Assembly (NCBI GenBank): GCA_964589975.1
Contig: CAZPVH010000006.1
Location: 1 to 34,712, forward strand
Source of the DNA: an uncultured Candidatus Saccharibacteria bacterium
Lineage (GTDB): Bacteria > Patescibacteriota > Minisyncoccia > Phycocordibacterales > CSBR16-119
Reading direction: 5' to 3'
Length of the DNA stretch: 34,712 bases
The notes under the pieces are model-generated. The model made no database searches. It was not told the origin of the DNA and saw only the letters and a list, made by a program, of their open reading frames with translations. Within the stretch, counting starts at the first letter, position 1, and each line of letters starts with the position of its first letter. Below are positions 1 through 13,670 of the stretch, piece by piece. Position numbers and translations under genes: made by a program.

Positions 1-32
1 ATGGTATTGGGGTTCGAGTCCCTGACCGGCAG
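1..32 (+). tRNA. 3' fragment of a tRNA gene (T-arm plus acceptor 3' strand); anticodon lies outside the window. The implied U1:A72 pair and G73 would fit Gln or Asn
   Basis: TGGGG-TTCGAGT-CCCTG T-arm at 8-24 (two G-U pairs), then ACCGGCA-G. A bidirectional terminator follows at 130-157. Confidence 0.7.
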
Positions 33-49
33 CAAACTTGAGCTAGCAC
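25..49. repeat. attL of the integrated element (B arm ACCGG, CA crossover 30-31, P' arm GCAAA-CTTGAGCTAG)
   Basis: CAGCAAA at 30-36 recurs at 12878-12884. CTTGAGCTAG at 37-46 is the exact reverse complement of CTAGCTCAAG at 12863-12872. Confidence 0.75.
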
Positions 50-129
50 GAGATGCTTACAAAATAAGCTCTCCAACTAGCCGAGATCTATACTGTAATT
101 GCATACCTGCTGAGAGCAGTATCCAGAAC

Positions 130-157
130 AAAAAAGCACCCAGTCGGGTGCTTTTTT
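130..157. terminator. Bidirectional intrinsic terminator downstream of the tRNA
   Basis: AAAAAAGCACCC-AGTC-GGGTGCTTTTTT perfect hairpin with A and T tracts. Confidence 0.85.
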
Positions 158-166
158 GTATTTGAC

Positions 167-196
167 TTGCCATATACCCCCTAGGGGGTATATAAT
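167..196 (+). promoter_or_regulatory. Copper operon promoter with CsoR-type operator
   Basis: TTGCCA (167-172), 18 bp, TATAAT (191-196). Perfect 22-bp palindrome ATATACCCCCTAGGGGGTATAT at 172-193 with the C/G tracts typical of CsoR operators. Confidence 0.85.
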
Positions 197-202
197 ATGT
201 TC

Positions 203-478
203 ATGAAATATATGGAAGATAAGAGTAAGGGGAAAATTATTCGTCGCCTCAAACTTATTGAGGGTCAGATTAGAGGTCTGCAAAAAATGGTTGAAGGTGA
301 CACATATTGCATTGACGTGATCACCCAAACTTCTGCGGTCAAACAAGGACTTTCCAATATTGAGGATTTGTTGCTCGAAAATCATCTTGGTGGATGCATT
401 CTGAATCAGGTAAAAGCTGGGCAGACTGAAAAGGCAAAGCAAGAGATTTTAAAAGTTTATAAGCTAAAGAGAAAATAA
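203..478 (+). CDS. csoR: Copper-sensing transcriptional repressor, CsoR/RcnR family
   Basis: RLKLIEGQIRGLQKMV...YCIDVITQ...ENHLGGC with the Cys/His/Cys ligands. Start placed at ATG 203 because ATG 197 abuts the -10 box. Confidence 0.92.
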   Translation: MKYMEDKSKGKIIRRLKLIEGQIRGLQKMVEGDTYCIDVITQTSAVKQGLSNIEDLLLENHLGGCILNQVKAGQTEKAKQEILKVYKLKRK

Positions 479-481
479 TTT

Positions 482-2776
482 ATGCATACACAAACATACA
501 ACGTAAAAGGAATGCATTGTGCCTCATGCTCATCTGTTATTGAAAAAACATTCAAGAAAGTCGAAGGTGTGCATTCTGCAGAAGTGAACTATGGTACAGA
601 AAAAGCGAAAGTTTCTTTTGATCCTTCCAAAACAAGTCCTCATGATCTCTCTAAGCACATCGAACCCCTTGGATATTCGCTTGAAGTACCTGAAACAGCG
701 ATGGAAATGGGTATGTCCGAAAGTGAACATGCAGCCCATCTTGGACTTAATCAGTCAAAAAAGGAAAAGCTTGCCGAAGTTGCGGACATGCGAACAAAGG
801 TGCTCTCTGCAATTCCTTTGGCAATCTTTGCAGCTCTCATTATGGGCTGGGACATTCTCGCTGAGTACAGCATTGTCCCTGCGATGAGTTATACACTCAA
901 GGAATTTTTTCACCATCTCCTTCCAATATTTGCCACCTACATTCTTTTTGTAGTAGGTAAGCCATACCTTCTTGGTTTTTATAGATTTCTCCGATACGGC
1001 AAAGCGAATATGGATACGCTTATCGGTATTGGTACGGTAGCCGCTTTTTTATACAGTTTCGCCGTCAGTGCTTTTGAGGATGTTCTTAAGCCATTTATTA
1101 ACGTCGAATATCAATACTACGATGTAACGATTGTAGTCATTACCTTTATTGCGCTTGGTAAATACCTTGAGGCAAGGTCTAAAATTAAAACGGGAGATGC
1201 CATCGAAAAGCTTCTCAATCTTCAAGCGAAAACAGCATTGGTTGTTCTTGATGGAAAGGAAATCGAGATTTCAGTAAACGATGTAAAGCACGGAGATTTG
1301 ATTATCGTAAAGCCAGGAGCAAAAATTCCTGTTGATGGTGTGATCATTGAAGGCTCATCTTTTATTGATGAATCGATGGTTACAGGAGAGCCAATGCCTG
1401 CTCAGAAAAAGATCGGTGACAATGTAGTATCTGGCACAATAAATACAAGCGGATCATTTACCTTTAAAGCCACTAAGGTTGGTTCAGAGACATTGCTCGC
1501 ACAGATTATAAAGATGGTTGAAGATGCTCAAGGAAGCAAAGCACCAATACAGGCACTGGCAGACAAGATATCAGCAATCTTTGTACCTATAGTTCTAATA
1601 ATCGCTTTTCTTTCCCTTGGTGCGTGGCTTATTATTGGGTCGCAATATTTGGGCTTTTCCCAAGCACTTTCATTCGGTCTTGTATCCTTTGTTGGACTCC
1701 TGGTAATAGCCTGTCCGTGCGCGCTTGGTCTCGCTACTCCAACCGCAATAATCGTCGGAGTTGGCAAAGGTGCTAAGGAAGGAATTCTTATCAAAGATGC
1801 GGCTACTCTTGAAAAACTCCACAAGGTAAACACAGTTGTGGTCGACAAGACAGGAACAGTAACCAAGGGAAAGCCGACGCTTATCGATATACAAAACTTC
1901 TCAAACTTGAAAGATGATGAACTTGTTTCAATCCTCGCTTCGCTTGAGAAAAAATCAGAGCATCCGATCGCACACGCAATCGTAAGCTACGCACAAGAGA
2001 AAAATATCTCAATATCTGATGTTTCAAACTTTGAAGGAATACAAGGAAAGGGTCTTAAGGGAAAGATAAAAGACACTGAATATTTTGTAGGCAATGCAAA
2101 ACTTGTGAGTGATCTCAAGATTTTATTTGACGCTAATAAGTTAGACGAGTTTACTTCACAAGGAAAAACACCAGTCATTCTTGCCACCAATGAAAAAGTT
2201 CTTGGTTTCGTGATGGTGGCAGATGAAATCAAGACCGAGTCAGTAGAGGCTATTAAAAATCTTCACGCTCTCGGCATAAAGGTAGTTATGCTTACAGGAG
2301 ATGATGAAAAGGCTGCAAAGTATATAGGGTCACTCGTCGGTATCGATGATGTTGTAGCTCATGTGTTACCGCAGGATAAGCTTGAAAAAATAAAAGAGCT
2401 TCAATCGCAAGGTCGTATTGTTGCTATGGCTGGCGATGGAGTGAACGATGCGCCCGCGCTTGCTCAGGCTGATGTAGGGATTGCTATGGGTACGGGTACG
2501 GATGTTGCGATCGAGTCTGCAGGCATCACACTTCTTGGCGGTGATATTTCAAAGCTTGTAAAAGCTATCAAGCTTTCCAAGATCACTATGCGAGGAATCA
2601 AGCAAAATCTTTTCTGGGCATTCGTCTACAACATTGTCGGTATACCACTCGCCGCAGGTGTTTTCTATCCAATCTTCGGTTGGCTTTTGAATCCTATCTT
2701 TGCTGGATTAGCTATGGCGATGTCGTCAGTCTCCGTAGTGTCGAATTCACTTCGCATTAAAGCTAAGAAATTATAA
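482..2776 (+). CDS. copA: Cu(I)-translocating P1B-type ATPase
   Basis: N-terminal GMHCASC, CPC (IACPCALGLATP), DKTGT, SEHP, GDGVNDAP, YN and MAMSS transmembrane ligands. Confidence 0.96.
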   Translation: MHTQTYNVKGMHCASCSSVIEKTFKKVEGVHSAEVNYGTEKAKVSFDPSKTSPHDLSKHIEPLGYSLEVPETAMEMGMSESEHAAHLGLNQSKKEKLAEVADMRTKVLSAIPLAIFAALIMGWDILAEYSIVPAMSYTLKEFFHHLLPIFATYILFVVGKPYLLGFYRFLRYGKANMDTLIGIGTVAAFLYSFAVSAFEDVLKPFINVEYQYYDVTIVVITFIALGKYLEARSKIKTGDAIEKLLNLQAKTALVVLDGKEIEISVNDVKHGDLIIVKPGAKIPVDGVIIEGSSFIDESMVTGEPMPAQKKIGDNVVSGTINTSGSFTFKATKVGSETLLAQIIKMVEDAQGSKAPIQALADKISAIFVPIVLIIAFLSLGAWLIIGSQYLGFSQALSFGLVSFVGLLVIACPCALGLATPTAIIVGVGKGAKEGILIKDAATLEKLHKVNTVVVDKTGTVTKGKPTLIDIQNFSNLKDDELVSILASLEKKSEHPIAHAIVSYAQEKNISISDVSNFEGIQGKGLKGKIKDTEYFVGNAKLVSDLKILFDANKLDEFTSQGKTPVILATNEKVLGFVMVADEIKTESVEAIKNLHALGIKVVMLTGDDEKAAKYIGSLVGIDDVVAHVLPQDKLEKIKELQSQGRIVAMAGDGVNDAPALAQADVGIAMGTGTDVAIESAGITLLGGDISKLVKAIKLSKITMRGIKQNLFWAFVYNIVGIPLAAGVFYPIFGWLLNPIFAGLAMAMSSVSVVSNSLRIKAKKL

Positions 2777-2778
2777 TT

Positions 2779-3786
2779 ATGAAAGCATACACATTACACG
2801 TATCGGGTACCCATTGTGCATCATGCAAAATCTTAATCGAAGATGTTTTAAATGATCAAGATTATATTAGTAGCGCACAAGTAGATTTAAAAAATCAAAC
2901 CTTACGAATAGAAACTGTGAGTGAGAAATCTCCAGAAGAATTGGCAGATTTACTTACTGAGAAGGTAAAACCAAACGGCTATACGGTATCAGTAGAAAGG
3001 GTTTTAATAGAAAAACAAAAAGATGATGTTATCTGGAAGGCACTGCCTATAGGGTTAGTATTCCTAATACTTTTCTTTGTATTACAAAAATCAGGGCTAT
3101 TAAATCTTGGTATCGGTGGCACAACCACCCCTGCCACGAGTTTTATTATTGGGCTTATTGCATCAGTATCAAGCTGTCTTGCTGTGGTTGGCGGACTTGT
3201 TCTGTCACTTTCAGCAAAAATTTCTCAAGACAACGTAAGTGATACAAAGACTTTCATGCTTTTCCATATCGGAAGACTCGTTAGTTTTGCGCTCCTTGGC
3301 GGAGTGCTTGGCTTAGTTGGGAGTGCTATAGGAATCAGTTTTACTTTTACTGCAATCCTAGGAATTATTGCGTCAATAGTAATGCTTCTATTGGGACTCA
3401 ATCTGATTGGAGTGTTCAAAAAGAATAAAGTGGCATTACCTTCAGGAATTTTTAACTTCTTCCGCAAAATAGAACACAAGACTCTAACTCCTTTAATAGT
3501 TGGATTTGCCACATTCTTCCTGCCTTGTGGTTTTACTCAATCGATGCAAGTAGTAGCACTATCTAGCGGTTCATTTATTTCAGGATTACTTATTATGCTT
3601 GCATTTGCTCTCGGTACGCTCCCAATGCTTTTACTCTTGTCGTTTGGAGGAGCATCGCTTGCTCATGGAAAACATGCACCCTTGTTCTTCAAATCTGCTG
3701 GAGTGGTAGTGATAGGTCTTGGAATATTTGCACTACTTGCAGGTCTGGCAGGGCTTGGAATTATTAATCCTTTATTTAATATATAA
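2779..3786 (+). CDS. HMA domain plus DsbD_2 / sulfite-exporter TauE/SafE-like membrane protein
   Basis: N-terminal GTHCASC, multiple hydrophobic helices, SSCLAVVGG and FLPCGF motifs; directly follows copA. Confidence 0.85.
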   Translation: MKAYTLHVSGTHCASCKILIEDVLNDQDYISSAQVDLKNQTLRIETVSEKSPEELADLLTEKVKPNGYTVSVERVLIEKQKDDVIWKALPIGLVFLILFFVLQKSGLLNLGIGGTTTPATSFIIGLIASVSSCLAVVGGLVLSLSAKISQDNVSDTKTFMLFHIGRLVSFALLGGVLGLVGSAIGISFTFTAILGIIASIVMLLLGLNLIGVFKKNKVALPSGIFNFFRKIEHKTLTPLIVGFATFFLPCGFTQSMQVVALSSGSFISGLLIMLAFALGTLPMLLLLSFGGASLAHGKHAPLFFKSAGVVVIGLGIFALLAGLAGLGIINPLFNI

Positions 3787-3793
3787 TTATTTT

Positions 3794-4195
3794 ATGAACA
3801 AAACCGCTTCAATCATTATTACTTTAGCCCTTGTGGTAGGTCTCGGCATTATATTTGTCGGTGGATCAAAGTCGGGAAACTCTAATACTGATTCAATACA
3901 GCAAGCCCAAAACGTAGAGATACGAGATGGCGTTCAATATATAACGATTGATGCTAAAGGCGGATATTCTCCAAAAATATCTTCTGCCAAAGCAGATATC
4001 CCTACTAAACTAGTTGTCAAAACAAACGGCACATATGATTGCTCATCGTCCCTGGTGATTAAATCTATTGGATATCAAAAAATCCTAGCTCAAACTGGAG
4101 AGGAAATTATTGATATCGGTACACCGAAAGCTGGTGTACCACTGCAAGGAGTTTGTGGTATGGGAATGTATAATTTCTCGATCAGTTTTACTTAA
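3794..4195 (+). CDS. Cupredoxin-like exported or membrane-anchored protein
   Basis: N-terminal signal or TM helix, GGYSP...DCSSSLVI...CGMGMY. Start placed at MNKT (3794), just after the upstream stop. Confidence 0.75.
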   Translation: MNKTASIIITLALVVGLGIIFVGGSKSGNSNTDSIQQAQNVEIRDGVQYITIDAKGGYSPKISSAKADIPTKLVVKTNGTYDCSSSLVIKSIGYQKILAQTGEEIIDIGTPKAGVPLQGVCGMGMYNFSISFT

Positions 4196-5511
4196 GGTAA
4201 ATAGATTTGTTTTTCTTTGAGTAAAATTTTACTCTTGAAACAAGTAAGCAGTTCTCGTTTTTCTTCGATAGATCCATCTTTCAAAATAAACTTTGCGTAG
4301 TCTCGTATGTCTACATCTTTTATTTGTATTTGTTGTTTGATATTCAGAACCGATTGATTGAATCTTTTGATTCGCTCAACTTCAGTTTTGATTTTCTCTT
4401 TCATTCCGATCTCATTGATATTAATGTGATCAAGTAGCTTCTCAAATTGTTCAATAAGCTCGACTTCGTTAATGTAGCCACATTTGCAGTACTTATCTTT
4501 TGATTTCGTACAACTGTAGTAAACATGTCTGTTCACTGATCCGTCTTTAAGTTTCTTAAACTTTTCATCTGCACAGATACCAGATTCGCACAGACCACAC
4601 GACATCATTTTTGTGAAAGCGAACTCCTTCGGCTCTTGTACTCGTAATACTTGGCTTTTTACTTGCCCTTGAACCTGATCATAAAGTTCCTTAGATATAA
4701 TCGGTTCATGTTTTCCTGTATAGAAATTGCCACTCTTCTTAGGGTATTCAAAAACCCCATAGTAGATGGGGTTCTGCAGTATAAGATATATGTTACTGAG
4801 AGTGAGTCCTTTGTTGCCGTTTCTTGTCTTAAAGTTTAGCTCAAACTTGAGCCAATGGAAAAGCTTTCTGCCTGACCATTTTTCATACGCTACTTTTTCA
4901 AACATTTGCTTTACTATCGGTGCTCGTTCGGTATCTATAACAACTTCACACTTTTTATCCATTCGTTTTTCGTTGAGATATCCAACAACAGCAGGACCAG
5001 GGCGAAGCCCCATCTCACATCTTGTTCGTAAACCTCGTTTTACATTGATACTTTTATTATCGTTCTCGAGTTTTGCTTGGGAACATAGAATCATTAAAAG
5101 AAACTTCTCATTTGGAGAATTTTTGAAGTGTTGTCCATATGTTCTGATTTCAAGAAGTTTTGTCTCGTCCATAAGGTCAACTACTGATCCTAGATCTCCT
5201 GCATTTCTTGATAGACGATCAGGTGCCCAGGTGAGTATTCCGTTATACCTACCACGCCTTATATCCTCTAATACCTCTCTAAACACTGGTCGTTGCCCAG
5301 ATTCTTTAGCTGAGTGAGATTCACGTCTAATATCAACAACTGTTAAGCCATCACGGTCGGCTATAGCAAGCATTTCCTTAACCTGTGATTCGATAGACAG
5401 GGCTTGTTTTTCGTCTGATTCGGTTGATTTTCGAGCGTACAGGACATACCGAATCTTGGTTTTGGGTACCTCTGTCCTTACTCCTAAATTGCTTATATAT
5501 TGCGTCTCCAT
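4192..5511 (-). CDS. Large serine recombinase (resolvase, recombinase and Zn-ribbon domains)
   Basis: YARKSTE catalytic motif, ESHSAK, DRLSR, and C-terminal CGLC...YYSC...CKC. Start placed at METQ (5511); the ORF is open from 5529. Confidence 0.93.
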   Translation of the reverse strand: METQYISNLGVRTEVPKTKIRYVLYARKSTESDEKQALSIESQVKEMLAIADRDGLTVVDIRRESHSAKESGQRPVFREVLEDIRRGRYNGILTWAPDRLSRNAGDLGSVVDLMDETKLLEIRTYGQHFKNSPNEKFLLMILCSQAKLENDNKSINVKRGLRTRCEMGLRPGPAVVGYLNEKRMDKKCEVVIDTERAPIVKQMFEKVAYEKWSGRKLFHWLKFELNFKTRNGNKGLTLSNIYLILQNPIYYGVFEYPKKSGNFYTGKHEPIISKELYDQVQGQVKSQVLRVQEPKEFAFTKMMSCGLCESGICADEKFKKLKDGSVNRHVYYSCTKSKDKYCKCGYINEVELIEQFEKLLDHININEIGMKEKIKTEVERIKRFNQSVLNIKQQIQIKDVDIRDYAKFILKDGSIEEKRELLTCFKSKILLKEKQIYLP

Positions 5512-5583
5512 ATTATATTGATGACGCAATTTGAGCGTTTTGCTAAGTCTATGCAGAACTAGCGAAATATTGCATACTCGCGA

Positions 5584-7080
5584 CTACTTTTTTTGATCCA
5601 TATCTACATAATCCCTAAAGTACAAAGGTTCATCATCTCCCATCCAGTACATAAGCCAAGTAGATTCTCCTGAATGCTTGTCCATGGTTGAGTTGATCAA
5701 TAGAGAAAACGCATCTGCTAAGTCGTCATGTTTTTCAACCCCAAATCCAACAAGTTGCTCAATTAACTGCTCACATCCTTGTCTTGGGAATTTAATCTTT
5801 CCTGACTTAATAGCTGTTGAGGTGAGAGCAAGTCGTGTTCTTTTGTCTCCCTTTGGTTTAATCGCCGTTGCTTTAACTCCTTGATGTTCAAGCATTTGAG
5901 GTAATGCTTCTTGATATGCAACACTTTCGACAAAAAGCTCATCGGAATGTTTTTTAAGTATAGTGTTACGAACATCTTTCATGAGATCAACCTGTGCAGG
6001 GAAATTAAGTTTTTTTGCAATAGGATTTGGAAGTATGTATATACACATTTTTTCTCGACGAGAATATATGTGAGCAAATACGACAGCTGTATCATCAGCA
6101 ACTTCTGATCCTGAAATCGCAAGATCTACTCCTGCGTAGGTACCACGATAACCACGATGTTTTTCTCCTGGCAGTTCATCATAGAATTGAATCCATTCTG
6201 GATAAATAACTTGATCATCGCTTGGAATAATACGGAGCAAGTATTCTCGTTGCCAAGATATTTCACTGGCAACTTTTAATTTCTCTTCTTCCAGGTCTTT
6301 TTCGGTTGCATATTTTCCAGACCACAAACACACCCCGTTTTTATCAATCAACGGATACTCTTTAAATATTCCTTTTGCTTTACCTTTAGAGATTTCGTCT
6401 TTGATACGCATTAACAACGAATCTTCGTGGAGTAAGTTACCAACAATAATGAGTCGAGTATTTCTGTCACCAGCAGGGATCACTTCACCTCGGAGCCAGT
6501 TATAGGTCTTTTCTCGACCCTCACGAGTTTTTGTAGATTGAACATCTTCAACGTCATCGCAGATGATGAGATCAGGACGGTGTTCATTGTGGCGAATTCC
6601 ACGGATACTCTGTTCGGCAGAAGCCACAGTGATTCTTGCCCCGTGTTTCTTGAACACGAGAGAGAATGAACCCCATTCGTCACTTTCTTCTTGAAAAGGT
6701 CCAAGGTCTTTTTTAAGAACGTCATTGCCCTCAAGTTCAGTACGGATATTCATCATGTGTTGTTTTGCCTGTGCTCGTGTTTGGCAGAATATAATACAAA
6801 ACTTCTTTTGTTGTTTTCCGAGGATTGCCCAGATTGGGTATGCTGTTGTGACCATGGTCGATTTTCCTGATCCACGAAATGCAACCACATATAAGTTTTC
6901 AGTAGTACTTTTTTCGAGATTATGAATAATCTCTTTTTGAAAATCTGCTGTTTCGTATTTCACATAGTGTGCATAGTAGAAATGGAAAAAATACAAGAAA
7001 CTATCTTTAGTAATTGATGTTCGCACTGATCTATCTTTAATCATAGTATTCACCAGTGCTTTTGGAATTATTTTAGTCAT
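5584..7080 (-). CDS. Phage terminase large subunit-like ATPase/nuclease
   Basis: Walker A AFRGSGKST, Walker B LIICDDVED, coupling motif IIVGN, RNase H-like nuclease motifs GVDLA, VESVAYQ and HDDLADA. Confidence 0.88.
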   Translation of the reverse strand: MTKIIPKALVNTMIKDRSVRTSITKDSFLYFFHFYYAHYVKYETADFQKEIIHNLEKSTTENLYVVAFRGSGKSTMVTTAYPIWAILGKQQKKFCIIFCQTRAQAKQHMMNIRTELEGNDVLKKDLGPFQEESDEWGSFSLVFKKHGARITVASAEQSIRGIRHNEHRPDLIICDDVEDVQSTKTREGREKTYNWLRGEVIPAGDRNTRLIIVGNLLHEDSLLMRIKDEISKGKAKGIFKEYPLIDKNGVCLWSGKYATEKDLEEEKLKVASEISWQREYLLRIIPSDDQVIYPEWIQFYDELPGEKHRGYRGTYAGVDLAISGSEVADDTAVVFAHIYSRREKMCIYILPNPIAKKLNFPAQVDLMKDVRNTILKKHSDELFVESVAYQEALPQMLEHQGVKATAIKPKGDKRTRLALTSTAIKSGKIKFPRQGCEQLIEQLVGFGVEKHDDLADAFSLLINSTMDKHSGESTWLMYWMGDDEPLYFRDYVDMDQKK

Positions 7081-7082
7081 AA

Positions 7083-7490
7083 TTATTTTTTACGATTAAT
7101 ATTTTTAATAGATTTCGACTTGGTAATTTTTGCGAGTTTGAGTGCCTGCTTTACAATTTTCGCTTGTGACGGTGTTAGTTCCTCGTTGTCATCTTTAGTA
7201 GTAATCTCAAGTTTGTTCTTGTAATTATCATTTCGGTGACGAAGCCAAAAACTAATCGCAGGATAGTTTTTCTCCTTGATAAGAGTTAGTAGTTGGCTTT
7301 CACTCATGTCATTTACCAAGGCGACACCTTCAGAAAGTGCATTGTCCATTTTCTTGAGAAATTCTTTATCATCTTTTCGCCAACGATAGACACTATTACG
7401 AGATAATCCTGTTTTCTCACATGCCACCTGAACGATTGGCACTTTTCGCAGTTCATCAAGGAACTGGTCTTGAAATTTATTCTTTTTCAT
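7083..7490 (-). CDS. HTH protein, terminase small subunit-like (phBC6A51-type HTH)
   Basis: IVQVACEKTGLSRNSVYRWRKDDKEF HTH; lies immediately upstream of terL with a 2-nt gap. Confidence 0.65.
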   Translation of the reverse strand: MKKNKFQDQFLDELRKVPIVQVACEKTGLSRNSVYRWRKDDKEFLKKMDNALSEGVALVNDMSESQLLTLIKEKNYPAISFWLRHRNDNYKNKLEITTKDDNEELTPSQAKIVKQALKLAKITKSKSIKNINRKK

Positions 7491-8754
7491 AGAAGTTCTT
7501 GATTACTTGTGCTTTACGACCAGTAAGTTTTTCGTACCGACGAATCGCTAAATCACAAAACACAGGTTCTATCTCTAGGGAATAGACCTTCCGACCTAAT
7601 TGCTCCGCACAGATCATAGTGCTAGCAGATCCAGAGAAGGCATCAAAAATGATGTCTCCTGGTTTAGTGCAACGCATTATAAACTTGTGATGAAGTTCAG
7701 GATTTTTACTCGTTGCGTGTTCCATTTGATTTGAAGGTAGTCGTTTTGTCGCCCAAATGTTTGAAACATCTTCTAGAAGTTGATTACCAGTTCCGTAATC
7801 TTTGTTTTGAACTTCATTTAGATTTCTTACGAGATCTGAAATATATGGAGATCCTTTCGTGCCATACACGCAATACTCAAGGCACTTATTGAACGCAACA
7901 GTTGGTGTCGGTGATGAATTGTTTTTAACCCAGACATTAAGTCTTCGGTTCTTAACTCCATTTTCCATATAGAGCGTTTGAAAAACCCACACCCAGGCTT
8001 CATCACACCAGAAAGCGACGTGTACATCTTTGGTAGATACGGTTAGTGAAGATTTTAGAACCTTGCGAATAAATTCTTTATATTCTTCAGGTGATTGGTT
8101 ATCGTCAAAAGTTCCTCCGTAGTTGGATTTATTACCAACACCTTTGTCGTATGAAAGCCCGATATTAAAAGGTGGATCATTATAGATAGCCGTGGCTTTA
8201 TCATTTCCGAATAGCTTGGTGACAGCATTCATATCGGTAGAACTGGCACATAGCAACTTATGACCACCCATGATGATAAGATTACCCGGCTTTGTTTGTG
8301 GTGTTTTTATTTTCTTTAACTCTTTATCGACATCGAATTTGTCGTCTTTTGTATCTTTTTCCTCGTCCCAGAACTTAACCAGTTCTTTTTCGTTGAATCC
8401 AGCAAACTGCAAAAGCTCTAGGTCAAAAGATTTAAGCTTTTTAAAATCCCATTCACCATCATTAATATTGCTTTCAATTGCAATCTTGCGACGCTCGTCG
8501 TCTGATAGTTTACGATCAGGGATTAATACATTTACTTGTTTGATACCAAGCTGTATCAAAGCAGTTTTTCTTTGGTTGCCTGAGATAATGGTGTTATCCG
8601 TATCAATGACAATTACACTATGAAAACCATTTTGAATGATTTTCTCTTTTAATTTTTCCATAGCGATCTTTGAGATTTTTCTTGGATTTTCTTTCCAAGG
8701 GAGTAGGTCTTTGACCTCTCGAACTCCTGTTTTCCATGAAGGTTTTTTATTCAT
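7477..8754 (-). CDS. ParB/Srx N-terminal domain fused to an N6A/N4C DNA methyltransferase (beta order)
   Basis: PWKENPR...IISGNQR ParB-like N-terminus; motif IV DPPF precedes motif I FDAFSGSAST. Confidence 0.88.
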   Translation of the reverse strand: MNKKPSWKTGVREVKDLLPWKENPRKISKIAMEKLKEKIIQNGFHSVIVIDTDNTIISGNQRKTALIQLGIKQVNVLIPDRKLSDDERRKIAIESNINDGEWDFKKLKSFDLELLQFAGFNEKELVKFWDEEKDTKDDKFDVDKELKKIKTPQTKPGNLIIMGGHKLLCASSTDMNAVTKLFGNDKATAIYNDPPFNIGLSYDKGVGNKSNYGGTFDDNQSPEEYKEFIRKVLKSSLTVSTKDVHVAFWCDEAWVWVFQTLYMENGVKNRRLNVWVKNNSSPTPTVAFNKCLEYCVYGTKGSPYISDLVRNLNEVQNKDYGTGNQLLEDVSNIWATKRLPSNQMEHATSKNPELHHKFIMRCTKPGDIIFDAFSGSASTMICAEQLGRKVYSLEIEPVFCDLAIRRYEKLTGRKAQVIKNFYEKE

Positions 8755-8863
8755 AGAGTTGTTATTTGATTACTTATAAATTTGTAGATGACTAATCTAC
8801 TAACTCTATGAAATCAAAAAGGTACATAGGCATGTAATTGGCATAAAATTGAGTAGCATAAAG

Positions 8864-8885
8864 AAAAAACGCCTATTTAAAGGCG
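8864..8885 (-). terminator. Intrinsic terminator downstream of the 8929-9552 gene
   Basis: Minus strand CGCCT-TTAAAT-AGGCG-TTTTTT; short stem. Confidence 0.55.
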
Positions 8886-8928
8886 ATTTTTCAAAGTTAT
8901 CCACTCAACTTGGTGTCAACTTAGGAAT

Positions 8929-9552
8929 TTATTCTTTCTCTATGTGTATTTTGGGATTGATACGATACCCAGATCCTTTCTTTCCTTGAATGAGTTTTGT
9001 TTTCTTTGGAAGTCTTAGGGTGTTGATCGCATAGTCATTAAAAGTTTGAACAATTTTTGCTACAGCTGATGATGAAAGCATTACCTCAAGTTCTTTTGTC
9101 TTTACATATGTACCACGGTCAAGAAGTATTTCAAGCAACTGCTTTCTTTTACCGTTTTCAGTGAGATCGTATGAAAAAAGTTTGCCACCTAGGTGTCTAT
9201 CGAGTGATCCGTTTCTTGTATCATAAATAATTACATTGCTGTCTTGGCTTGAAGATAAAAGTCGCTTGTGGTTTTTGTTTAGTTCTTGAAGTTCTTCCAA
9301 GATGTCATATTCAACAGGACGACGGTATACGATTTCAGGATATTCTACTGGTTCAAAAAGTTTTACTTGTTCTCGAACACGATTCATTTGTTCAATGATA
9401 GGCTGGGCAATTTTTCTCACATTTTCAATCATTTCGGCATGTTTTCTTCCAATTTCTTGGAATTGAGAAATCTGCCCCTCACTCAAAGCAGGGGGATGTA
9501 TTTTTACCACCAGTTCACCGACAGTCATTGGTTTTTTCTGGTCATTTTCCAT
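8929..9552 (-). CDS. Hypothetical protein with a probable C-terminal winged-helix DNA-binding domain
   Basis: 207-aa ORF with a leaderless TGcTATGAT promoter 6 nt upstream; C-terminal LLEILL...AVAKIV...GKKGSGYRIN resembles a wHTH wing. Confidence 0.6.
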   Translation of the reverse strand: MENDQKKPMTVGELVVKIHPPALSEGQISQFQEIGRKHAEMIENVRKIAQPIIEQMNRVREQVKLFEPVEYPEIVYRRPVEYDILEELQELNKNHKRLLSSSQDSNVIIYDTRNGSLDRHLGGKLFSYDLTENGKRKQLLEILLDRGTYVKTKELEVMLSSSAVAKIVQTFNDYAINTLRLPKKTKLIQGKKGSGYRINPKIHIEKE

Positions 9553-9610
9553 AAAGACATCATAGCAAATACTTGCTTTTTTGTATAGAGTAATTTATAC
9601 TATTTATACC
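9553..9610. promoter_or_regulatory. Divergent promoter region of the wHTH gene and the LexA-like gene
   Basis: Plus strand TTGCTT (9573-9578), 17 bp, TATACT (9596-9601); minus strand TG-C-TATGAT (9567-9559). Inverted repeats AGCAA-N4-TTGCT and GTATA-N8-TATAC. Confidence 0.55.
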
Positions 9611-10228
9611 ATGACAAATAACCTTAGTGATAAAGATAAAAAAGCATTTGCCCTTATCCGTAATAAGATTGTTCACTATGGCAAAAGCCCTACGCTTAGC
9701 GAGATTAATGAGGTTACAGGTGGAGCTTCTCCACGATCTGCAAGCCTTGTAATTAATCGACTAATCGATGCAGGACTTATAAAGAAAATCGGTCGACAGC
9801 TTATCCTTACCGGATCACAAACAACAGCTTCAATAAGCACTGTTGATGTTCCCTTGGTAGGTGCTGTGACATGTGGTACCCCTGTTCTTGCTGAAGAAAA
9901 TATTCAAGCTTTGATTCCTGTATCAACAGGTCTAGCTAAAAAGGGTTCGAAATATTTTCTTTTGCGTGCAATTGGAGACTCTATGAATCTTGCAGGAATT
10001 AATAGCGGTGATCTGCTTTTGATTCGACAGCAAGACACAGCAGAAGATAATGATAAAGTTGTTGCTCTTATAAATGACGAAGCAACCGTCAAAGTGTTCA
10101 AGAAAGCGAATGGTGCTGTTGTACTTCAACCGAAGTCAACGAATAAAAACCACAAGCCGATTATATTAACAGATAATTGTATCATCCAAGGGGTAGTCGT
10201 TGCTGTGCTTCCTGGTGATTTATATTAA
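9611..10228 (+). CDS. lexA: LexA-family autocleaving repressor (wHTH plus peptidase S24)
   Basis: SPTLSEI...SPRSASLVINRL wHTH, predicted cleavage site VTC/GTP, catalytic GDSM Ser and ATVK Lys. Element-borne, so not necessarily the host SOS repressor. Confidence 0.88.
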   Translation: MTNNLSDKDKKAFALIRNKIVHYGKSPTLSEINEVTGGASPRSASLVINRLIDAGLIKKIGRQLILTGSQTTASISTVDVPLVGAVTCGTPVLAEENIQALIPVSTGLAKKGSKYFLLRAIGDSMNLAGINSGDLLLIRQQDTAEDNDKVVALINDEATVKVFKKANGAVVLQPKSTNKNHKPIILTDNCIIQGVVVAVLPGDLY

Positions 10229-10232
10229 ATTT

Positions 10233-10472
10233 ATGGCAAAGAAGAATATACATACCGTATTTAACAAAGAAAGAAAAATGTGGGAGACAAAAAAAGAGGG
10301 ACAAGAAAAACCTTTAGTCTCTTCTCATACTAAAGAAAAAGCATTAGAAAAATCTATAATCGAGGCAAAGAAGAATAAGGTTGAGCACGTTATTCATAAC
10401 AAGGATGGGAAAATATCAGATAAGGATAGTTATGGAAAAGATCCTAATCCTCCTAAAGATAAAAAGAACTAA
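10233..10472 (+). CDS. DUF2188 family small protein
   Basis: HTV...WETKKEG...TKEKA...VIHNKDGKI..KDSYGKDPNPPKD pattern. Confidence 0.8.
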   Translation: MAKKNIHTVFNKERKMWETKKEGQEKPLVSSHTKEKALEKSIIEAKKNKVEHVIHNKDGKISDKDSYGKDPNPPKDKKN

Positions 10473-10475
10473 TTT

Positions 10476-11276
10476 ATGAAAAAGACTCAACAGCCCATAA
10501 AAAGACCCGCAAACCTATCTTATGATGAGATGAAAATTGCTATTCCAAAAATTGAAAGAAGGATTCAAGATCTAAAAAATTTTGATATCAATTCTGTTTC
10601 AAAGCAATTTAGTCCTGAAGTTAAAGCGCTAGAAACTAAGCTTGAGCAATTTCTTTCAGATTTATATTCTCCTGATACGGTTGAACACGATAAATACAAT
10701 TGGAGTCTGACAAATATTGATTGTCAGACAATGAATATGATGTACGAAACTCCTCTGCACGAGGTCCGGCATGCAATAACAGAAAATATAGCTAGAGCGA
10801 TCTCTGTACTAGAGGCAATCAAGGGTCATTTTTCTGAAACACTTGAAGATGCTGGTGTGTTGGGATCTGTAAAGCCAATTAAGGCATATGAGGGACTTGA
10901 ATTACATCCTGCTATAGCTAAAGCTTCTAGTAATTTATATAAAGATGGTCACTATGCCAATGCTGTTGAAGATGCTGTAAAAGCATTAAATGCGTTAGTT
11001 AGATTAAATAGTGGTGTGGATGATAAAGATGGAACACAGTTAATGGAATCAGTTTTTAGCCCTAAAAACCCGATTCTTAAAATTAATAATCTTATCGATC
11101 AATCTGATATTGATGAGCAAAAAGGTTTTATGAATCTTTTTTCTGGAGCTGTTTCTGGCTTAAGAAACCCAAGAGCCCACAAAATAATTAAAGATGATGC
11201 TGAAATGGCACTTGAATTCATAGCTTTTATTAGTCTTTTGGCAAAATTTGTAGATAGATCTGTAAAAGTAAATTAA
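10476..11276 (+). CDS. TIGR02391 / Ymh-domain protein (HEPN-like, RxxxxH)
   Basis: C-terminal LHPAI...GHYANAVEDA...DGTQLMESVF...EQKGFMNLFSGAVSGLRNPRAH. Confidence 0.82.
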   Translation: MKKTQQPIKRPANLSYDEMKIAIPKIERRIQDLKNFDINSVSKQFSPEVKALETKLEQFLSDLYSPDTVEHDKYNWSLTNIDCQTMNMMYETPLHEVRHAITENIARAISVLEAIKGHFSETLEDAGVLGSVKPIKAYEGLELHPAIAKASSNLYKDGHYANAVEDAVKALNALVRLNSGVDDKDGTQLMESVFSPKNPILKINNLIDQSDIDEQKGFMNLFSGAVSGLRNPRAHKIIKDDAEMALEFIAFISLLAKFVDRSVKVN

Positions 11277-11283
11277 TTTAACT

Positions 11284-12579
11284 ATGGATGAAAAGAAGAA
11301 TTATTTCATTAAGTTTTTAACTCGATATCCTGAGCTTTTAAAAAAGGCGACTGGTTTAGATAATGAATCATTTTCAAAACTAGAATCTAGCTATCTGTCA
11401 AAAGTAAAATCAAAGGAAAGATATATATACGATGCATGTTTAAGACTTCAACAAGTTGGCTTTTTCTATATAAGAGCTGATGACCTAATTAACTCTTCAA
11501 AAAAGGATGATTTTACTACTGATACTGGAATTAATCTTGCCTTATCTCTAGAAAAGGAGCTGATGCTCTGGTTGCGTTCGTTGCACGAATTATTTGTATA
11601 TAGTTTCCTTTTTAGATCCACAAATTCAGATAAGTATTTCAGATATTATTTTCTATCTAGGGCACTTGAAGCTTTTGCTAAACGAGCAAAAAACAAAAAA
11701 GAGTTTTTTGGAATGGATAATTTAAATGAGAATGAGCAACCAATAAACAAAATATTAAATGAAATAAATTTATTAGAGTCTGGTGGTGGTATTAAAAATG
11801 CTAAGATATGGTTTGTAAAAGAATCAAAACTCAAAAGTCGGTTTATCAGTACTTTTAAAAGAAGAGAATTTAGTGATATTGGGGATTCTTACAGATCTTT
11901 ATTTAAAAAGGTGTTACCTAAACTGGCTCCTTCTCAGCGTATAGCACTTGGTCTTGATTATGGATACTACAGTGAACTTAGTGAGGCAATCCACAATAAT
12001 ATAGGAGGACCTAAAAAGTCCGTTGTTTACAGTAAAGATTATTTTGATGCATACCTACAAATATTACCTCTTGTCGCAGGTCATATAATTTTAAATCTTA
12101 GTAAAATACTAAAGAAAAAAACACCTGACCAGTTAAAAGATCTTGAGAAGATTTTAATAAAAGGTTTTGATAATTCTATCTATAAACTAAACAAGAAAAA
12201 ATTATCTAAATCTGATTACGTATTAGTAAATGGAATCACACTCGGACGTGTATTAAAAGTTATTAATACAAAATATGGTTATCAGTCTGTTTTAGTCGAA
12301 CATATTGATTCTAGTGGATGGAAGCCAGGCGAAGAAGTCTTTTCTTCGGATAAGATAATATGGTTATTTGATCAAAGCAAAATAGAAAAGGATTTCAGGA
12401 AAATTTTAAATGAACATGGGACTAAAGTGAGAATTTCAAAAGATAAATTAAATAAATTACTAGATGAAAGTGTGAATAATCTTTGGCATAATATGGGTGC
12501 AAAAGAACATTTTTTCGGAGACAAGGAGGGTGCATTAAGGAAGATAAATGAAAGTATGAAAAGTAACACGGTGGTGTAA
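11284..12579 (+). CDS. Hypothetical protein, very AT-rich; weak DUF5677/HEPN-like YxxLSxxxH motif
   Basis: 431-aa ORF, operonic with the Ymh gene (7-nt gap); contains YYSELSEAIH. Confidence 0.6.
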   Translation: MDEKKNYFIKFLTRYPELLKKATGLDNESFSKLESSYLSKVKSKERYIYDACLRLQQVGFFYIRADDLINSSKKDDFTTDTGINLALSLEKELMLWLRSLHELFVYSFLFRSTNSDKYFRYYFLSRALEAFAKRAKNKKEFFGMDNLNENEQPINKILNEINLLESGGGIKNAKIWFVKESKLKSRFISTFKRREFSDIGDSYRSLFKKVLPKLAPSQRIALGLDYGYYSELSEAIHNNIGGPKKSVVYSKDYFDAYLQILPLVAGHIILNLSKILKKKTPDQLKDLEKILIKGFDNSIYKLNKKKLSKSDYVLVNGITLGRVLKVINTKYGYQSVLVEHIDSSGWKPGEEVFSSDKIIWLFDQSKIEKDFRKILNEHGTKVRISKDKLNKLLDESVNNLWHNMGAKEHFFGDKEGALRKINESMKSNTVV

Positions 12580-12618
12580 CTTTTTATACTCAAACCTGTG
12601 TCACTTTTGTCACTTTTT

Positions 12619-12789
12619 ATGAAGCAAGAATATAAAAGAAATCCCAAAAATTGGACTAAGGAAGAAACCGATAGAGTGGTGGCAGTTTTTCAGTGGCTAT
12701 TAGAACAAGATAAAAAACAGAATCCAGATAGATATAAACTGCCGAAAGGAGTTGTATTGGATAAAGACGGAAATCAAGTAATTTTATAG
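12619..12789 (+). CDS. Small hypothetical protein (56 aa) next to attR
   Basis: ATG at 12619 after a T-rich leader; MKQEYKRNPKNWT...FQWLLEQDKKQNPDRY. Confidence 0.55.
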   Translation: MKQEYKRNPKNWTKEETDRVVAVFQWLLEQDKKQNPDRYKLPKGVVLDKDGNQVIL

Positions 12790-12859
12790 GTGCTCAAAGA
12801 CCATCGAAATGATAAGATAGGAGTATTAAAAATGTCCTTACAGGGCTTGACCGACCACG

Positions 12860-12884
12860 GTTCTAGCTCAAGACGGCCAGCAAA
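12860..12884. repeat. attR of the integrated element (P arm CTAGCTCAAG-ACGGC, CA crossover 12878-12879, B' arm GCAAA)
   Basis: Inverted counterpart of 37-49 (12 of 13 positions) plus the 7-bp direct repeat CAGCAAA. Confidence 0.75.
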
Positions 12885-12902
12885 AGATTATTCTTTTTGA
12901 AA

Positions 12903-13670
12903 ATGAAAGATATTTTATTCATGTGGCAAGATTTAATCGGAGCAATTATAGGAGCTTCTGCACCCTTTATTTTATGGTGGTTTGCAGGAAAATATAGCCG
13001 CTATAATAGACGCAAAGAAGATTTATACTATCTCCATAGAACTATTGCAGATCAAATAAATACGCTTCTTGATACTAGAGATACTATTACAAAATTTATT
13101 AACGAAAAACTAACCCAGCTTATCGATAAACCTCGACCAGAGAATGACACTCAATATTCTGTTGACTTAGCATTCTTCCCTCTATTCTCTTCTCATCCTC
13201 TTGGAGATGACGTACATGTAAAGAGTACTGGCAGTGGATATGTAGATAATAAAATTGCTAGGGCTTATAAACTGTCAAAAGATCTACCCTACATAATTGA
13301 CGATTTAAGGCGACAATTTAAAGAGACTCTGGACTTTAATAGAGAAATTTCTTTCAATAAACTTAATCCTCCGCCATTCCAGAGAGCCAGCTATCTTAAA
13401 GATGTTAGTGAATACAGAAAGGTTCTTATAACAGAAATGTTGCAACAGAATATACCGATTTCGCTAAAAATTCTAAGTGAAGCCCTGGTCTCAATTGTCG
13501 AACTCCGAGAAATTGGACTAACTCGCTGGAAACTAAAATTCGATACTAGATATAGGTTTTATCTAACAAAGTCTAAGCAACGAACAGCCGCAGAAAAAAC
13601 TTATGAAAATATTGATTCGTACCTAAAACCTAAAGTAACCAAGCAGCTAGAAGCTTTTAGTAGTTCTTAG
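12903..13670 (+). CDS. Hypothetical protein with an N-terminal membrane anchor
   Basis: AT-rich ORF of about 255 aa with hydrophobic LIGAIIGASAPFILWWF. Confidence 0.6.
   Translation: MKDILFMWQDLIGAIIGASAPFILWWFAGKYSRYNRRKEDLYYLHRTIADQINTLLDTRDTITKFINEKLTQLIDKPRPENDTQYSVDLAFFPLFSSHPLGDDVHVKSTGSGYVDNKIARAYKLSKDLPYIIDDLRRQFKETLDFNREISFNKLNPPPFQRASYLKDVSEYRKVLITEMLQQNIPISLKILSEALVSIVELREIGLTRWKLKFDTRYRFYLTKSKQRTAAEKTYENIDSYLKPKVTKQLEAFSSS

Follow-up and report, generated by a model that had tools for sequence, protein, structure and literature searches.

An intact tRNA-integrated island of Patescibacteria with a complete terminase and no capsid genes

The genome of an uncultured Candidatus Saccharibacteria bacterium (assembly GCA_964589975.1, contig CAZPVH010000006.1) contains a 12.9-kb island that is intact and integrated at the very 3' end of a tRNA gene, flanked by a serine integrase's attL and attR sites. 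We refer to the whole stretch of DNA analysed, 34,712 nucleotides in length, as the window, and give positions relative to its first letter. The island encodes both the small (TerS) and the large (TerL) terminase subunit and carries no capsid genes, an architecture that recurs in related loci across Patescibacteria. We lean towards the view that it is a helper-dependent phage satellite with its own complete terminase, part of a Patescibacteria-wide family that travels in the capsids of another phage. An earlier reading of the window, made from its letters alone (hereafter the sequence-only reading), had flagged positions 4192-8754, which hold the packaging and integrase genes only. The island is wider, spanning approximately positions 30-12884 (~12.85 kb), and its G+C content is below that of the chromosome to its right.

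Packaging operon, head genes, and island limits

The packaging operon lies on the minus strand and begins with a 425-aa fusion of a ParB N-terminal domain and an N6_N4 DNA methyltransferase (7477-8754; PF01555, 3.6e-28; ParB_N, 4e-3; phrog_498, 1e-71; phrog_620, 1e-21). It is followed by TerS, a helix-turn-helix protein of 135 aa (7083-7490, minus strand; phrog_4044, 8.5e-10, and three further TerS PHROGs), and by TerL, of 498 aa (5584-7080, minus strand), which matches phrog_38 at 6e-80 and the Pfam terminase models weakly. The last gene encodes a large serine recombinase, the integrase (Int), of 439 aa (4192-5511, minus strand; PF00239, PF07508, and PF13408; phrog_95, 1e-58). Its open reading frame (ORF) is open over 4192-5529, and the ATG at 5511 yields a protein of the same length as its relatives. 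The gene block and strand described by the sequence-only reading were confirmed by the ORF coordinates, as were the three junctions: a 14-nt overlap between methyltransferase and TerS genes (7477-7490), a 2-nt gap before the TerL gene (7081-7082), and a 72-nt gap before the integrase gene (5512-5583).

The catalytic motifs of TerL, which the same reading had considered intact, were invariant to at least 97% when 81 homologues were aligned. These are Walker A (G70-S-G-K-S-T75) and Walker B with the catalytic Glu (D170, D175-D176, and E178), the coupling motif (G214-N-L), and the acidic nuclease residues (D319, E385, and D452/D453/D456). Selection was measured as pairwise ratios of nonsynonymous to synonymous substitution rates (dN/dS, NG86 method), with median values of 0.037 for TerL, 0.033 for the methyltransferase, 0.041 for TerS, 0.031 for Int, and 0.062 for the S24 repressor of the island. 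The core genes are thus under strong purifying selection, and relaxed selection on terL, which would have argued for decay, was not observed. In one pair of loci (L011 and L063), the TerL proteins are 99.4% identical at a dS of 0.41. Of 85 loci, 80 encode TerL as one ORF of full length; in the other five it is either split (three) or truncated by a contig end (two). Contigs with the core operon were present in four wastewater metatranscriptomes.

All 14 ORFs between the att sites were accounted for by Pfam and PHROG searches, and none of them is a portal, capsid, tail, lysis, primase, helicase, or Rep gene, which bears out the corresponding claim of the sequence-only reading. Likewise, no head gene was detected in ~95 related loci within up to 10 kb on each side, and no replication gene occurred in the recurrent gene clusters of 87 loci. 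Head genes were also sought directly with a set of 342 proteins encoded within 10 kb downstream of TerL on 67 related phage contigs, 300 of which match another such contig. When eight ORFs of this set were compared with PHROG, seven were portals or prohead proteases, and the eighth matched nothing. A phmmer search of the 342 proteins against 2,581 six-frame ORFs of at least 80 aa from the island loci gave no matches at E <= 1e-3, whereas the TerLs of the same phages, used as a control, gave 6,770 matches to the island ORFs. Against the remainder of the window, the head-module proteins gave one negligible match.

Structure models gave no indication that a hypothetical gene of the island is a hidden capsid or portal. 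A 207-aa protein (8929-9552, minus strand), encoded upstream of the methyltransferase, was modeled with AlphaFold2 on 41 sequences (predicted local distance difference test, pLDDT, 79). It has an N-terminal coiled coil and a C-terminal winged helix, and its best Foldseek matches in the PDB were the DNA-binding domains of CovR, ArlR, PhoP, and ToxR (probability 0.97-1.0). By its predicted fold, this protein is an OmpR-type DNA binder and not a capsid or portal protein. The model of a 431-aa DUF5677 protein in the cargo on the repressor side (pLDDT 66) is helical with a small beta-barrel. In a viral structure library, it matched no capsid or portal, and its matches were 55-90-residue domains of uncharacterized proteins.

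Phylogeny separates the island TerLs from those of phages that keep a portal. In a profile search of IMG/VR, contigs with a TerL 41-59% identical to that of the window keep the order (ParB/)methyltransferase-TerS-TerL-Int, whereas in most contigs with a TerL of ~34% identity or less, the gene immediately downstream is a large co-directional ORF; six of these ORFs were tested, and all were portals. A maximum-likelihood tree of 117 TerLs split 49 island sequences from 67 phage sequences by a branch of length 0.73 with maximal support (SH-aLRT 100). The closest TerLs of cultured phages belong to the Mu-like Haemophilus phage SuMu and Mannheimia phage 3927AP2, with 27-28% identity over more than 80% of the protein. 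Since the island TerLs form a single clade apart from portal-linked phage TerLs, the tree argues for an old, monophyletic lineage without capsids rather than for independent decays.

The limits of the island are defined by att sites with the arms of a serine-integrase system. Positions 1-33 (plus strand) are the 3' half of a tRNA gene, probably tRNA-Gln, truncated by the contig start, in which the T-arm (GGTTCGAGTCC) and acceptor end are visible and which forms the left arm of attB. At attL (29-58), the crossover CAGCAAA is followed by the P' arm CTTGAGCTAGCACGAG; at attR (12850-12884), the P arm GGTTCTAGCTCAAGACGGCCAG is followed by the crossover CAAA, and the full stretch reads GGTTCTAGCTCAAGACGGCCAGCAAA. 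A perfect 10-bp inverted repeat, CTAGCTCAAG and CTTGAGCTAG, lies in the P' arm (37-46) and the P arm (12863-12872). Inverted-repeat arms of this kind around a common CAGCAAA are what the attP of a serine integrase should leave once it has been divided between attR and attL. The predicted joins are …GGCCAGCA to AACTTGAGCTAGC… for attP and, within the tRNA gene, …CCGGCAGCA to AAAGATTATTC… for attB. The P arm of attP (12856-12881) also resembles the targeted tRNA 3' end (11-36), with 19 of 26 positions identical when counted by eye (GGTTCTAGCTCAAGACGGCCAGCAAA versus GGTTCGAGTCCCTGACCGGCAGCAAA).

These limits recur in other genomes. In 27 related loci, the repressor-side end carries the P-arm motif, oriented as expected and with unrelated flanks beyond it. 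On the integrase side of six loci, a tRNA-Gln end in GCAGC continues directly into (C/A)AACTTGAGCTAGC (five exact; L021 with two changes in the arm), and the outer flanks of these loci past the P arm on the other side are mutually unrelated. In contigs of other samples, the sequence from position 30 onward is joined to differing tRNA 3' ends, with junction variation at positions 30-36, and in still other contigs the identical tRNA end continues into unrelated DNA. As a separate observation, a metatranscriptome contig of run X28 joins the tRNA end (to position 36) to position 12788, with the letters between not known. The joint corresponds to neither of the predicted ones, attB or attP, and probably derives from a related island.

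A family of islands with a conserved core, regulatory switches, and exchangeable cargo

Homologues of this TerL are numerous, with more than 3,400 in the protein collection searched (TerL clusters). The best 120 are 77-89% identical to it, all are ~500 aa long, and they come from metagenome-assembled genomes of Paceibacterota, Moraniibacteriota, Colwellbacteria, and further Patescibacteria; in many cases the contig is chromosomal and 100-560 kb long. Two complete genomes, CP011215.1 and CP175956.1, also bear such an island, and the island of the window is present in wastewater and activated-sludge samples (runs X1 and X2). A search of ~185,000 species genomes matched 207 loci, which is an undercount, as the search was pattern limited. 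The islands occupy different tRNA genes, in one to several copies or tandems per genome. In chromosomal contigs, P and P' arms also occur directly adjacent to each other in an attP-like arrangement (L011:4148-4230, L012:4635-4685, L061:4021-4071, and L185:109-145). The attP-like junctions of L011, L012, L061, and L185/L186 are best read as two different tandem islands at one tRNA gene (tRNA-E1-attP-E2).

Synteny was compared across 87 non-redundant loci, each taken with flanks of up to 10 kb, by clustering their ORFs. TerL was found in 84 loci, the methyltransferase in 81, TerS in 78, the serine recombinase in 68, and the S24 repressor in 51; apart from these and the small gene just upstream of the methyltransferase, described below, no gene occurred in more than 14 of the loci. 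The TerS-TerL operon always starts with the methyltransferase gene. The sequence-only reading had proposed a capsid-less integrative or satellite class rather than a decayed prophage, and synteny, dN/dS, and the TerL clade all support that proposal: the loci keep the order methyltransferase-TerS-TerL(-Int), and the position where head genes might be expected is consistently without them, with none of the 342 head-module proteins matching.

Two variants of this arrangement were observed. On a 7.9-kb IMG/VR contig (L179:3942-7326), a methyltransferase (29% identity) and a 224-aa TerS (41%) directly precede a serine recombinase (62%). TerL is absent, and the backbone is that of the islands in a TerS-only, PICI-like form (PICI, phage-inducible chromosomal island). 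Two other loci (L101:3035-6318 and L103:3668-6812), with TerL 48% identical, have two consecutive TerL-like ORFs (~560 and ~525 aa) and no TerS match, and their islands carry the ParB-methyltransferase and a methyltransferase as separate genes.

In the window, the genes run in the order csoR, copA, HMA-DsbD_2, cupredoxin-like, int, terL, terS, methyltransferase, 207-aa winged-helix regulator, S24 repressor, DUF2188, Ymh/HEPN, DUF5677, and 57-aa ORF. Between the regulator and methyltransferase genes lies the control region of the packaging operon (8755-8928, minus strand), with a terminator-like hairpin after the regulator gene (8870-8885, from a terminator scan) and then a leader of ~115 nt with hairpins. 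Most related loci have a comparable spacer, of ~90-175 nt, between these genes. The region is moderately conserved across 73 loci, among which no universally conserved DNA site upstream of the methyltransferase (a possible pac site or promoter) was found. The slot of the 207-aa regulator, which has 76 homologues, is itself variable, and across the 87 loci it holds an unrelated 138-aa family in 36, the family of the window in 14, and a third family in 5.

The repressor (9581-10228, plus strand) is a LexA/CI-type S24 autopeptidase (PF00717, 1.2e-26; LexA_DNA_bind, 2.8e-4; phrog_4, 7e-21); its gene and that of the winged-helix regulator are divergent, with less than 60 bp between them. As read from its sequence, it retains the catalytic motifs (GDSM and Lys) and a cleavage site (Cys-Gly), together with a LexA-type DNA-binding domain. 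Six loci have an ImmA/IrrE M78 protease module in place of S24, at the same position (L019, L026, L052, L066, L078, and L084; for example, L084:6277-6777, PF06114, 1.8e-15), which suggests that these islands carry an alternative switch of the ImmR/ImmA type.

At the repressor-side end, a conserved terminal segment (12582-12792, plus strand) is 71-89% identical at the nucleotide level to other islands. It consists of a 39-nt motif with a TGTCACTTTT direct repeat, found at high depth in DNA and RNA contigs of other samples, and a 57-aa ORF (12619-12792) just inside attR. This ORF has the motif KRNPxNWTKEExDRVVxVFxWLL and 55-93% identity in at least 10 independent loci, and it is a candidate recombination directionality factor or regulator. 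An outward-facing promoter possibly lies by the ORF and the 39-nt motif.

Cargo occupies both ends of the island. On the integrase side (197-4195, plus strand) is a copper-efflux operon: csoR (197-478; PF02583, 4.9e-23), copA (482-2776; PF00122, 3e-58), HMA-DsbD_2 (2779-3786; PF13386, 1.3e-32), and a cupredoxin-like gene (3794-4195; PF13473, 1.2e-5). Elsewhere, this slot holds copper operons or a type IIG restriction-modification system with an SNF2 helicase. On the repressor side (10233-12579, plus strand), Pfam and PADLOC identified a DUF2188/PDC-S16 protein, a Ymh/HEPN protein resembling PD-Lambda-3_B, and the DUF5677 protein; other islands have CBASS (cyclic oligonucleotide-based antiphage signaling system), Thoeris, or a caspase-like gene there. 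The family thus has three exchangeable cargo slots: after the repressor, after Int, and between TerL and Int. The last is empty in the window and up to 8 kb long elsewhere, where it holds diversity-generating retroelements (DGRs), type III or MmeI restriction-modification, or nucleases. The defence cargo of the family includes CBASS (CD-NTase with Cap15), Thoeris (ThsA with a macro domain and ThsB with a TIR domain), a caspase-like protease, and HEPN/Ymh.

The exchange of cargo is visible as a nucleotide mosaic with sharp boundaries. Compared with six other islands, identity is 87-91% in the core (4191-10243); in the terminal part (12575-12884) it is 75-89%, whereas the cargo (1-4190 and 10244-12574) differs from those islands, and that on the repressor side is unique to the window.

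Several further observations concern the cargo and flanks. The DGRs between TerL and Int (L008:6569-9482; also L009, L019, L026, L034, L042, L088, and L089) often adjoin a type III restriction-modification pair. Besides a reverse transcriptase (phrog_1423, E ~1e-110), they contain a bAvd-like gene and encode an uncharacterized 311-317-aa protein, which is probably the target protein. The commonest non-core gene, which matches nothing in the databases, belongs to a 218-aa family found in 14 islands (among them L021:4541-5245) just inside the repressor-side end. Directly outside attR in the window is a 257-aa ORF (12897-13670) of low G+C content with no Pfam, PHROG, or PADLOC match, which may be left over from another element or may be a host gene that evolves fast. 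An Rfam search of the window matched nothing but tRNAs.

Comparison with known elements and alternative explanations

The closest known parallels are phage satellites. PICIs and the related Staphylococcus aureus pathogenicity islands resemble the island in size (~10-15 kb), site-specific integration, a repressor switch, and a TerS of their own that redirects packaging, as well as in lacking tail and lysis genes and carrying accessory or defence cargo at fixed positions. However, where PICIs usually have a tyrosine recombinase, the island has a large serine recombinase, and its integrase gene is internal rather than at the end of the element. It lacks a primase-replicase module, an origin, and a capsid-size redirection gene. 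It also differs in carrying TerL, in the ParB-methyltransferase that heads its packaging operon, and in its host phylum, Patescibacteria. PICIs carry terS without terL, together with a primase-replicase module (de Sousa et al. 2023, PMC10085698). Capsid-forming PICIs (cf-PICIs) carry terL and terS with the major capsid, portal, protease, and head-tail adaptor/connector genes, and they are the only one of the four satellite families in that study for which terL is named as core, beside terS (PMC10085698). They are dependent on a helper for part of the virion only, and none of their capsid, portal, protease, or connector genes was found in the window or its relatives. With a complete terminase and no capsid genes, the family departs in a defining feature from PICIs and in another from cf-PICIs.

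Other minimal elements share individual features with the island. Some phage-inducible chromosomal minimalist islands (PICMIs) have no replication module. The PICI-like elements (PLEs) of Vibrio cholerae encode their own replication initiator, are not known to carry TerL, manipulate the packaging of the helper, and are known from one species and one helper (ICP1). PLEs are satellites and anti-phage islands, roles proposed for the island as well, and like the island they have a large serine recombinase (PMC6002521, PMC9638900). The island has no replication gene. Virion-encapsidated integrative mobile elements (VEIMEs; Eppley et al. 2022, PMC9618062) and PICMIs are likewise minimal integrative elements without structural genes, some with TerS only. 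For VEIMEs, small terminase subunits and "motor-like ATPases" are all that is reported, with the helper expected to supply the large terminase (PMC9618062). Two further differences are that nearly all VEIMEs have tyrosine integrases and that VEIMEs were found inside virions. The Mu-like phages SuMu and 3927AP2 are complete phages, in which TerL is immediately followed by portal, MuF, protease, and major head genes; the island has its serine recombinase in that place.

Elements of other kinds fit less well. The head, tail, and lysis modules of a functional temperate prophage are absent among the 14 ORFs. The head-tail cluster of a gene transfer agent (GTA) is absent at the locus, and the island is mobile, with att sites and variable insertion sites. 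No relaxase, oriT, coupling protein, or type IV secretion domain, as in integrative and conjugative or mobilizable elements, was found in the element or in the recurrent clusters. We found no description of an island with its own terminase and no capsid genes in the full-text literature searched, with most subscription journals outside it.

If the island is a helper-dependent satellite, its cycle could run as follows. DNA damage (the SOS response) or a helper-phage signal would inactivate the S24 repressor, and loss of the repressor would allow expression of the winged-helix regulator, which would switch on the methyltransferase-TerS-TerL-Int operon. The integrase, with a directionality factor for which the 57-aa ORF is a candidate, would excise the island, and TerS would recognize a site on its DNA. 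TerL would then dock on the portal of procapsids from a co-infecting or co-resident helper, and cut and pump the island DNA in. The methyltransferase may mark this DNA against restriction in the next host, where the integrase would insert it at the 3' end of a tRNA gene. Consumption of helper procapsids, together with the defence cargo, could protect the host population. Milder than the less conventional uses considered below, this explanation would make the islands the first phage-satellite class of bacteria of the Candidate Phyla Radiation (CPR), with a complete terminase and without capsid genes.

Several results weigh against this explanation. No helper phage was found; the nearest phage TerLs in INPHARED and IMG/VR are ~25-35% identical, and no real phage in these collections closely shares the TerS or methyltransferase of the island. 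No attP or attB joint of the window strain was seen, a search that covered assembled contigs only, which drop rare forms, and a scan of viral contigs for attP junctions gave nothing. One metagenome contig with an attP junction (L185/L186) was considered as an excised circle and rejected, since two islands lie there in tandem, one side carrying restriction-modification cargo and the other a copper-type end. The core was in no virome-labeled run listed, and the contigs from RNA runs are weak evidence of transcription, as they may reflect a mixture of related islands or carried-over DNA. The island has no replication module that could supply concatemers for a headful-type terminase. A TerL-carrying satellite without any capsid gene also has no described precedent in the full-text literature searched, within the limits given above. 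Finally, the head-gene negative covers the window and ~95 loci, and capsid genes may lie elsewhere in the host genome.

Of the alternatives, the one that survives best is that the terminase serves the cell or the island without transfer in capsids, which we regard as rather unlikely. It could act in defence, with TerS/TerL intercepting the procapsids of an invading phage or cutting its unmethylated DNA while the ParB-methyltransferase protects self, as in restriction-modification; or it could process DNA for another route, for example one in which lysis frees the DNA and natural competence takes it up. The richness of the islands in defence cargo (CBASS, Thoeris, restriction-modification, and HEPN) is consistent with such a role, as are the constant position of the methyltransferase at the head of the TerS-TerL operon and the failure to find either a helper or a packaged form. 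The reported mobilization of Streptococcus thermophilus satellites by natural competence (PMC13376191) also favors it. However, TerS matched none of the PADLOC-DB 2.0 models, and TerL gave only a chance-level match to Nhi (E 0.003, 14 bits). In the same analysis, the methyltransferase matched generic type II methyltransferase models and the cargo matched PDC-S16 and PD-Lambda-3_B/HEPN. The module is nearly always linked to an integrase and att sites and moves between genomes, which suits transfer better than a fixed defence gene. In addition, tailed-phage TerL motors are weakly active without a portal, and the invariant ATPase, coupling, and nuclease motifs indicate that a complete packaging cycle is maintained.

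A split system, in which head and tail genes reside elsewhere in the same genome, would resemble a GTA or a "headless prophage" and seems improbable to us. The missing genes would belong to a domesticated cluster or to an ever-present resident prophage, and the strong conservation of TerL across hosts would suit such a conserved partner acting in trans. The island would then be a component of a distributed system for gene transfer and would not parasitize an independent phage. However, the distribution is patchy (the 207 loci among ~185,000 species genomes, itself an undercount), and different tRNA sites, variable copy number, and tandems are the behavior of a mobile element. Nor was any head gene present within 10 kb on either side in ~95 loci or in the window.

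We assign a similarly low probability to a pair of less conventional uses of the motor. In one, a Mu-type terminase would fill borrowed heads by headful from the integrated or tandem island and adjacent host DNA; TerLs of the Mu type package by headful from integrated copies. In the other, the terminase would cut or translocate DNA independently of capsids, either for export to neighbors or for release and subsequent uptake by competence or pili, and machinery for competence and pili is typical of CPR bacteria.

Decay of a prophage that lost its structural genes and kept a terminase by chance is very improbable: the genes are of phage origin and 3 of 83 evaluable TerL copies are split, but the same capsid-less architecture in ~95 loci, one deep TerL clade reaching ~41% identity, dN/dS of ~0.03 on four genes, intact att sites, and invariant motifs all stand against it, and independent decays would be expected to scatter among phage TerL lineages under relaxed selection, which the dN/dS values and the tree contradict.

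Implications for CPR bacteria

Much of bacterial diversity belongs to the CPR, whose members have tiny genomes and have hardly been cultured, and their gene exchange and phage resistance are largely obscure. A family that swaps CBASS, Thoeris, restriction-modification, DGR, and copper modules at fixed positions is a candidate for the main vehicle of defence and resistance genes in the phylum. Serine integrases with tRNA att sites defined to the base pair, together with a compact TerS/TerL, are also potential tools for organisms without genetics. If the terminase packages chromosomal DNA by headful, the islands would be the main engine of lateral transduction in CPR bacteria, and either this or a capsid-independent route would be a use of a viral packaging motor that has not been described for any mobile element. 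If the island is a satellite, as we favor, it would represent a new satellite architecture and imply a conserved helper portal, which would offer a handle for finding the phages of CPR bacteria.

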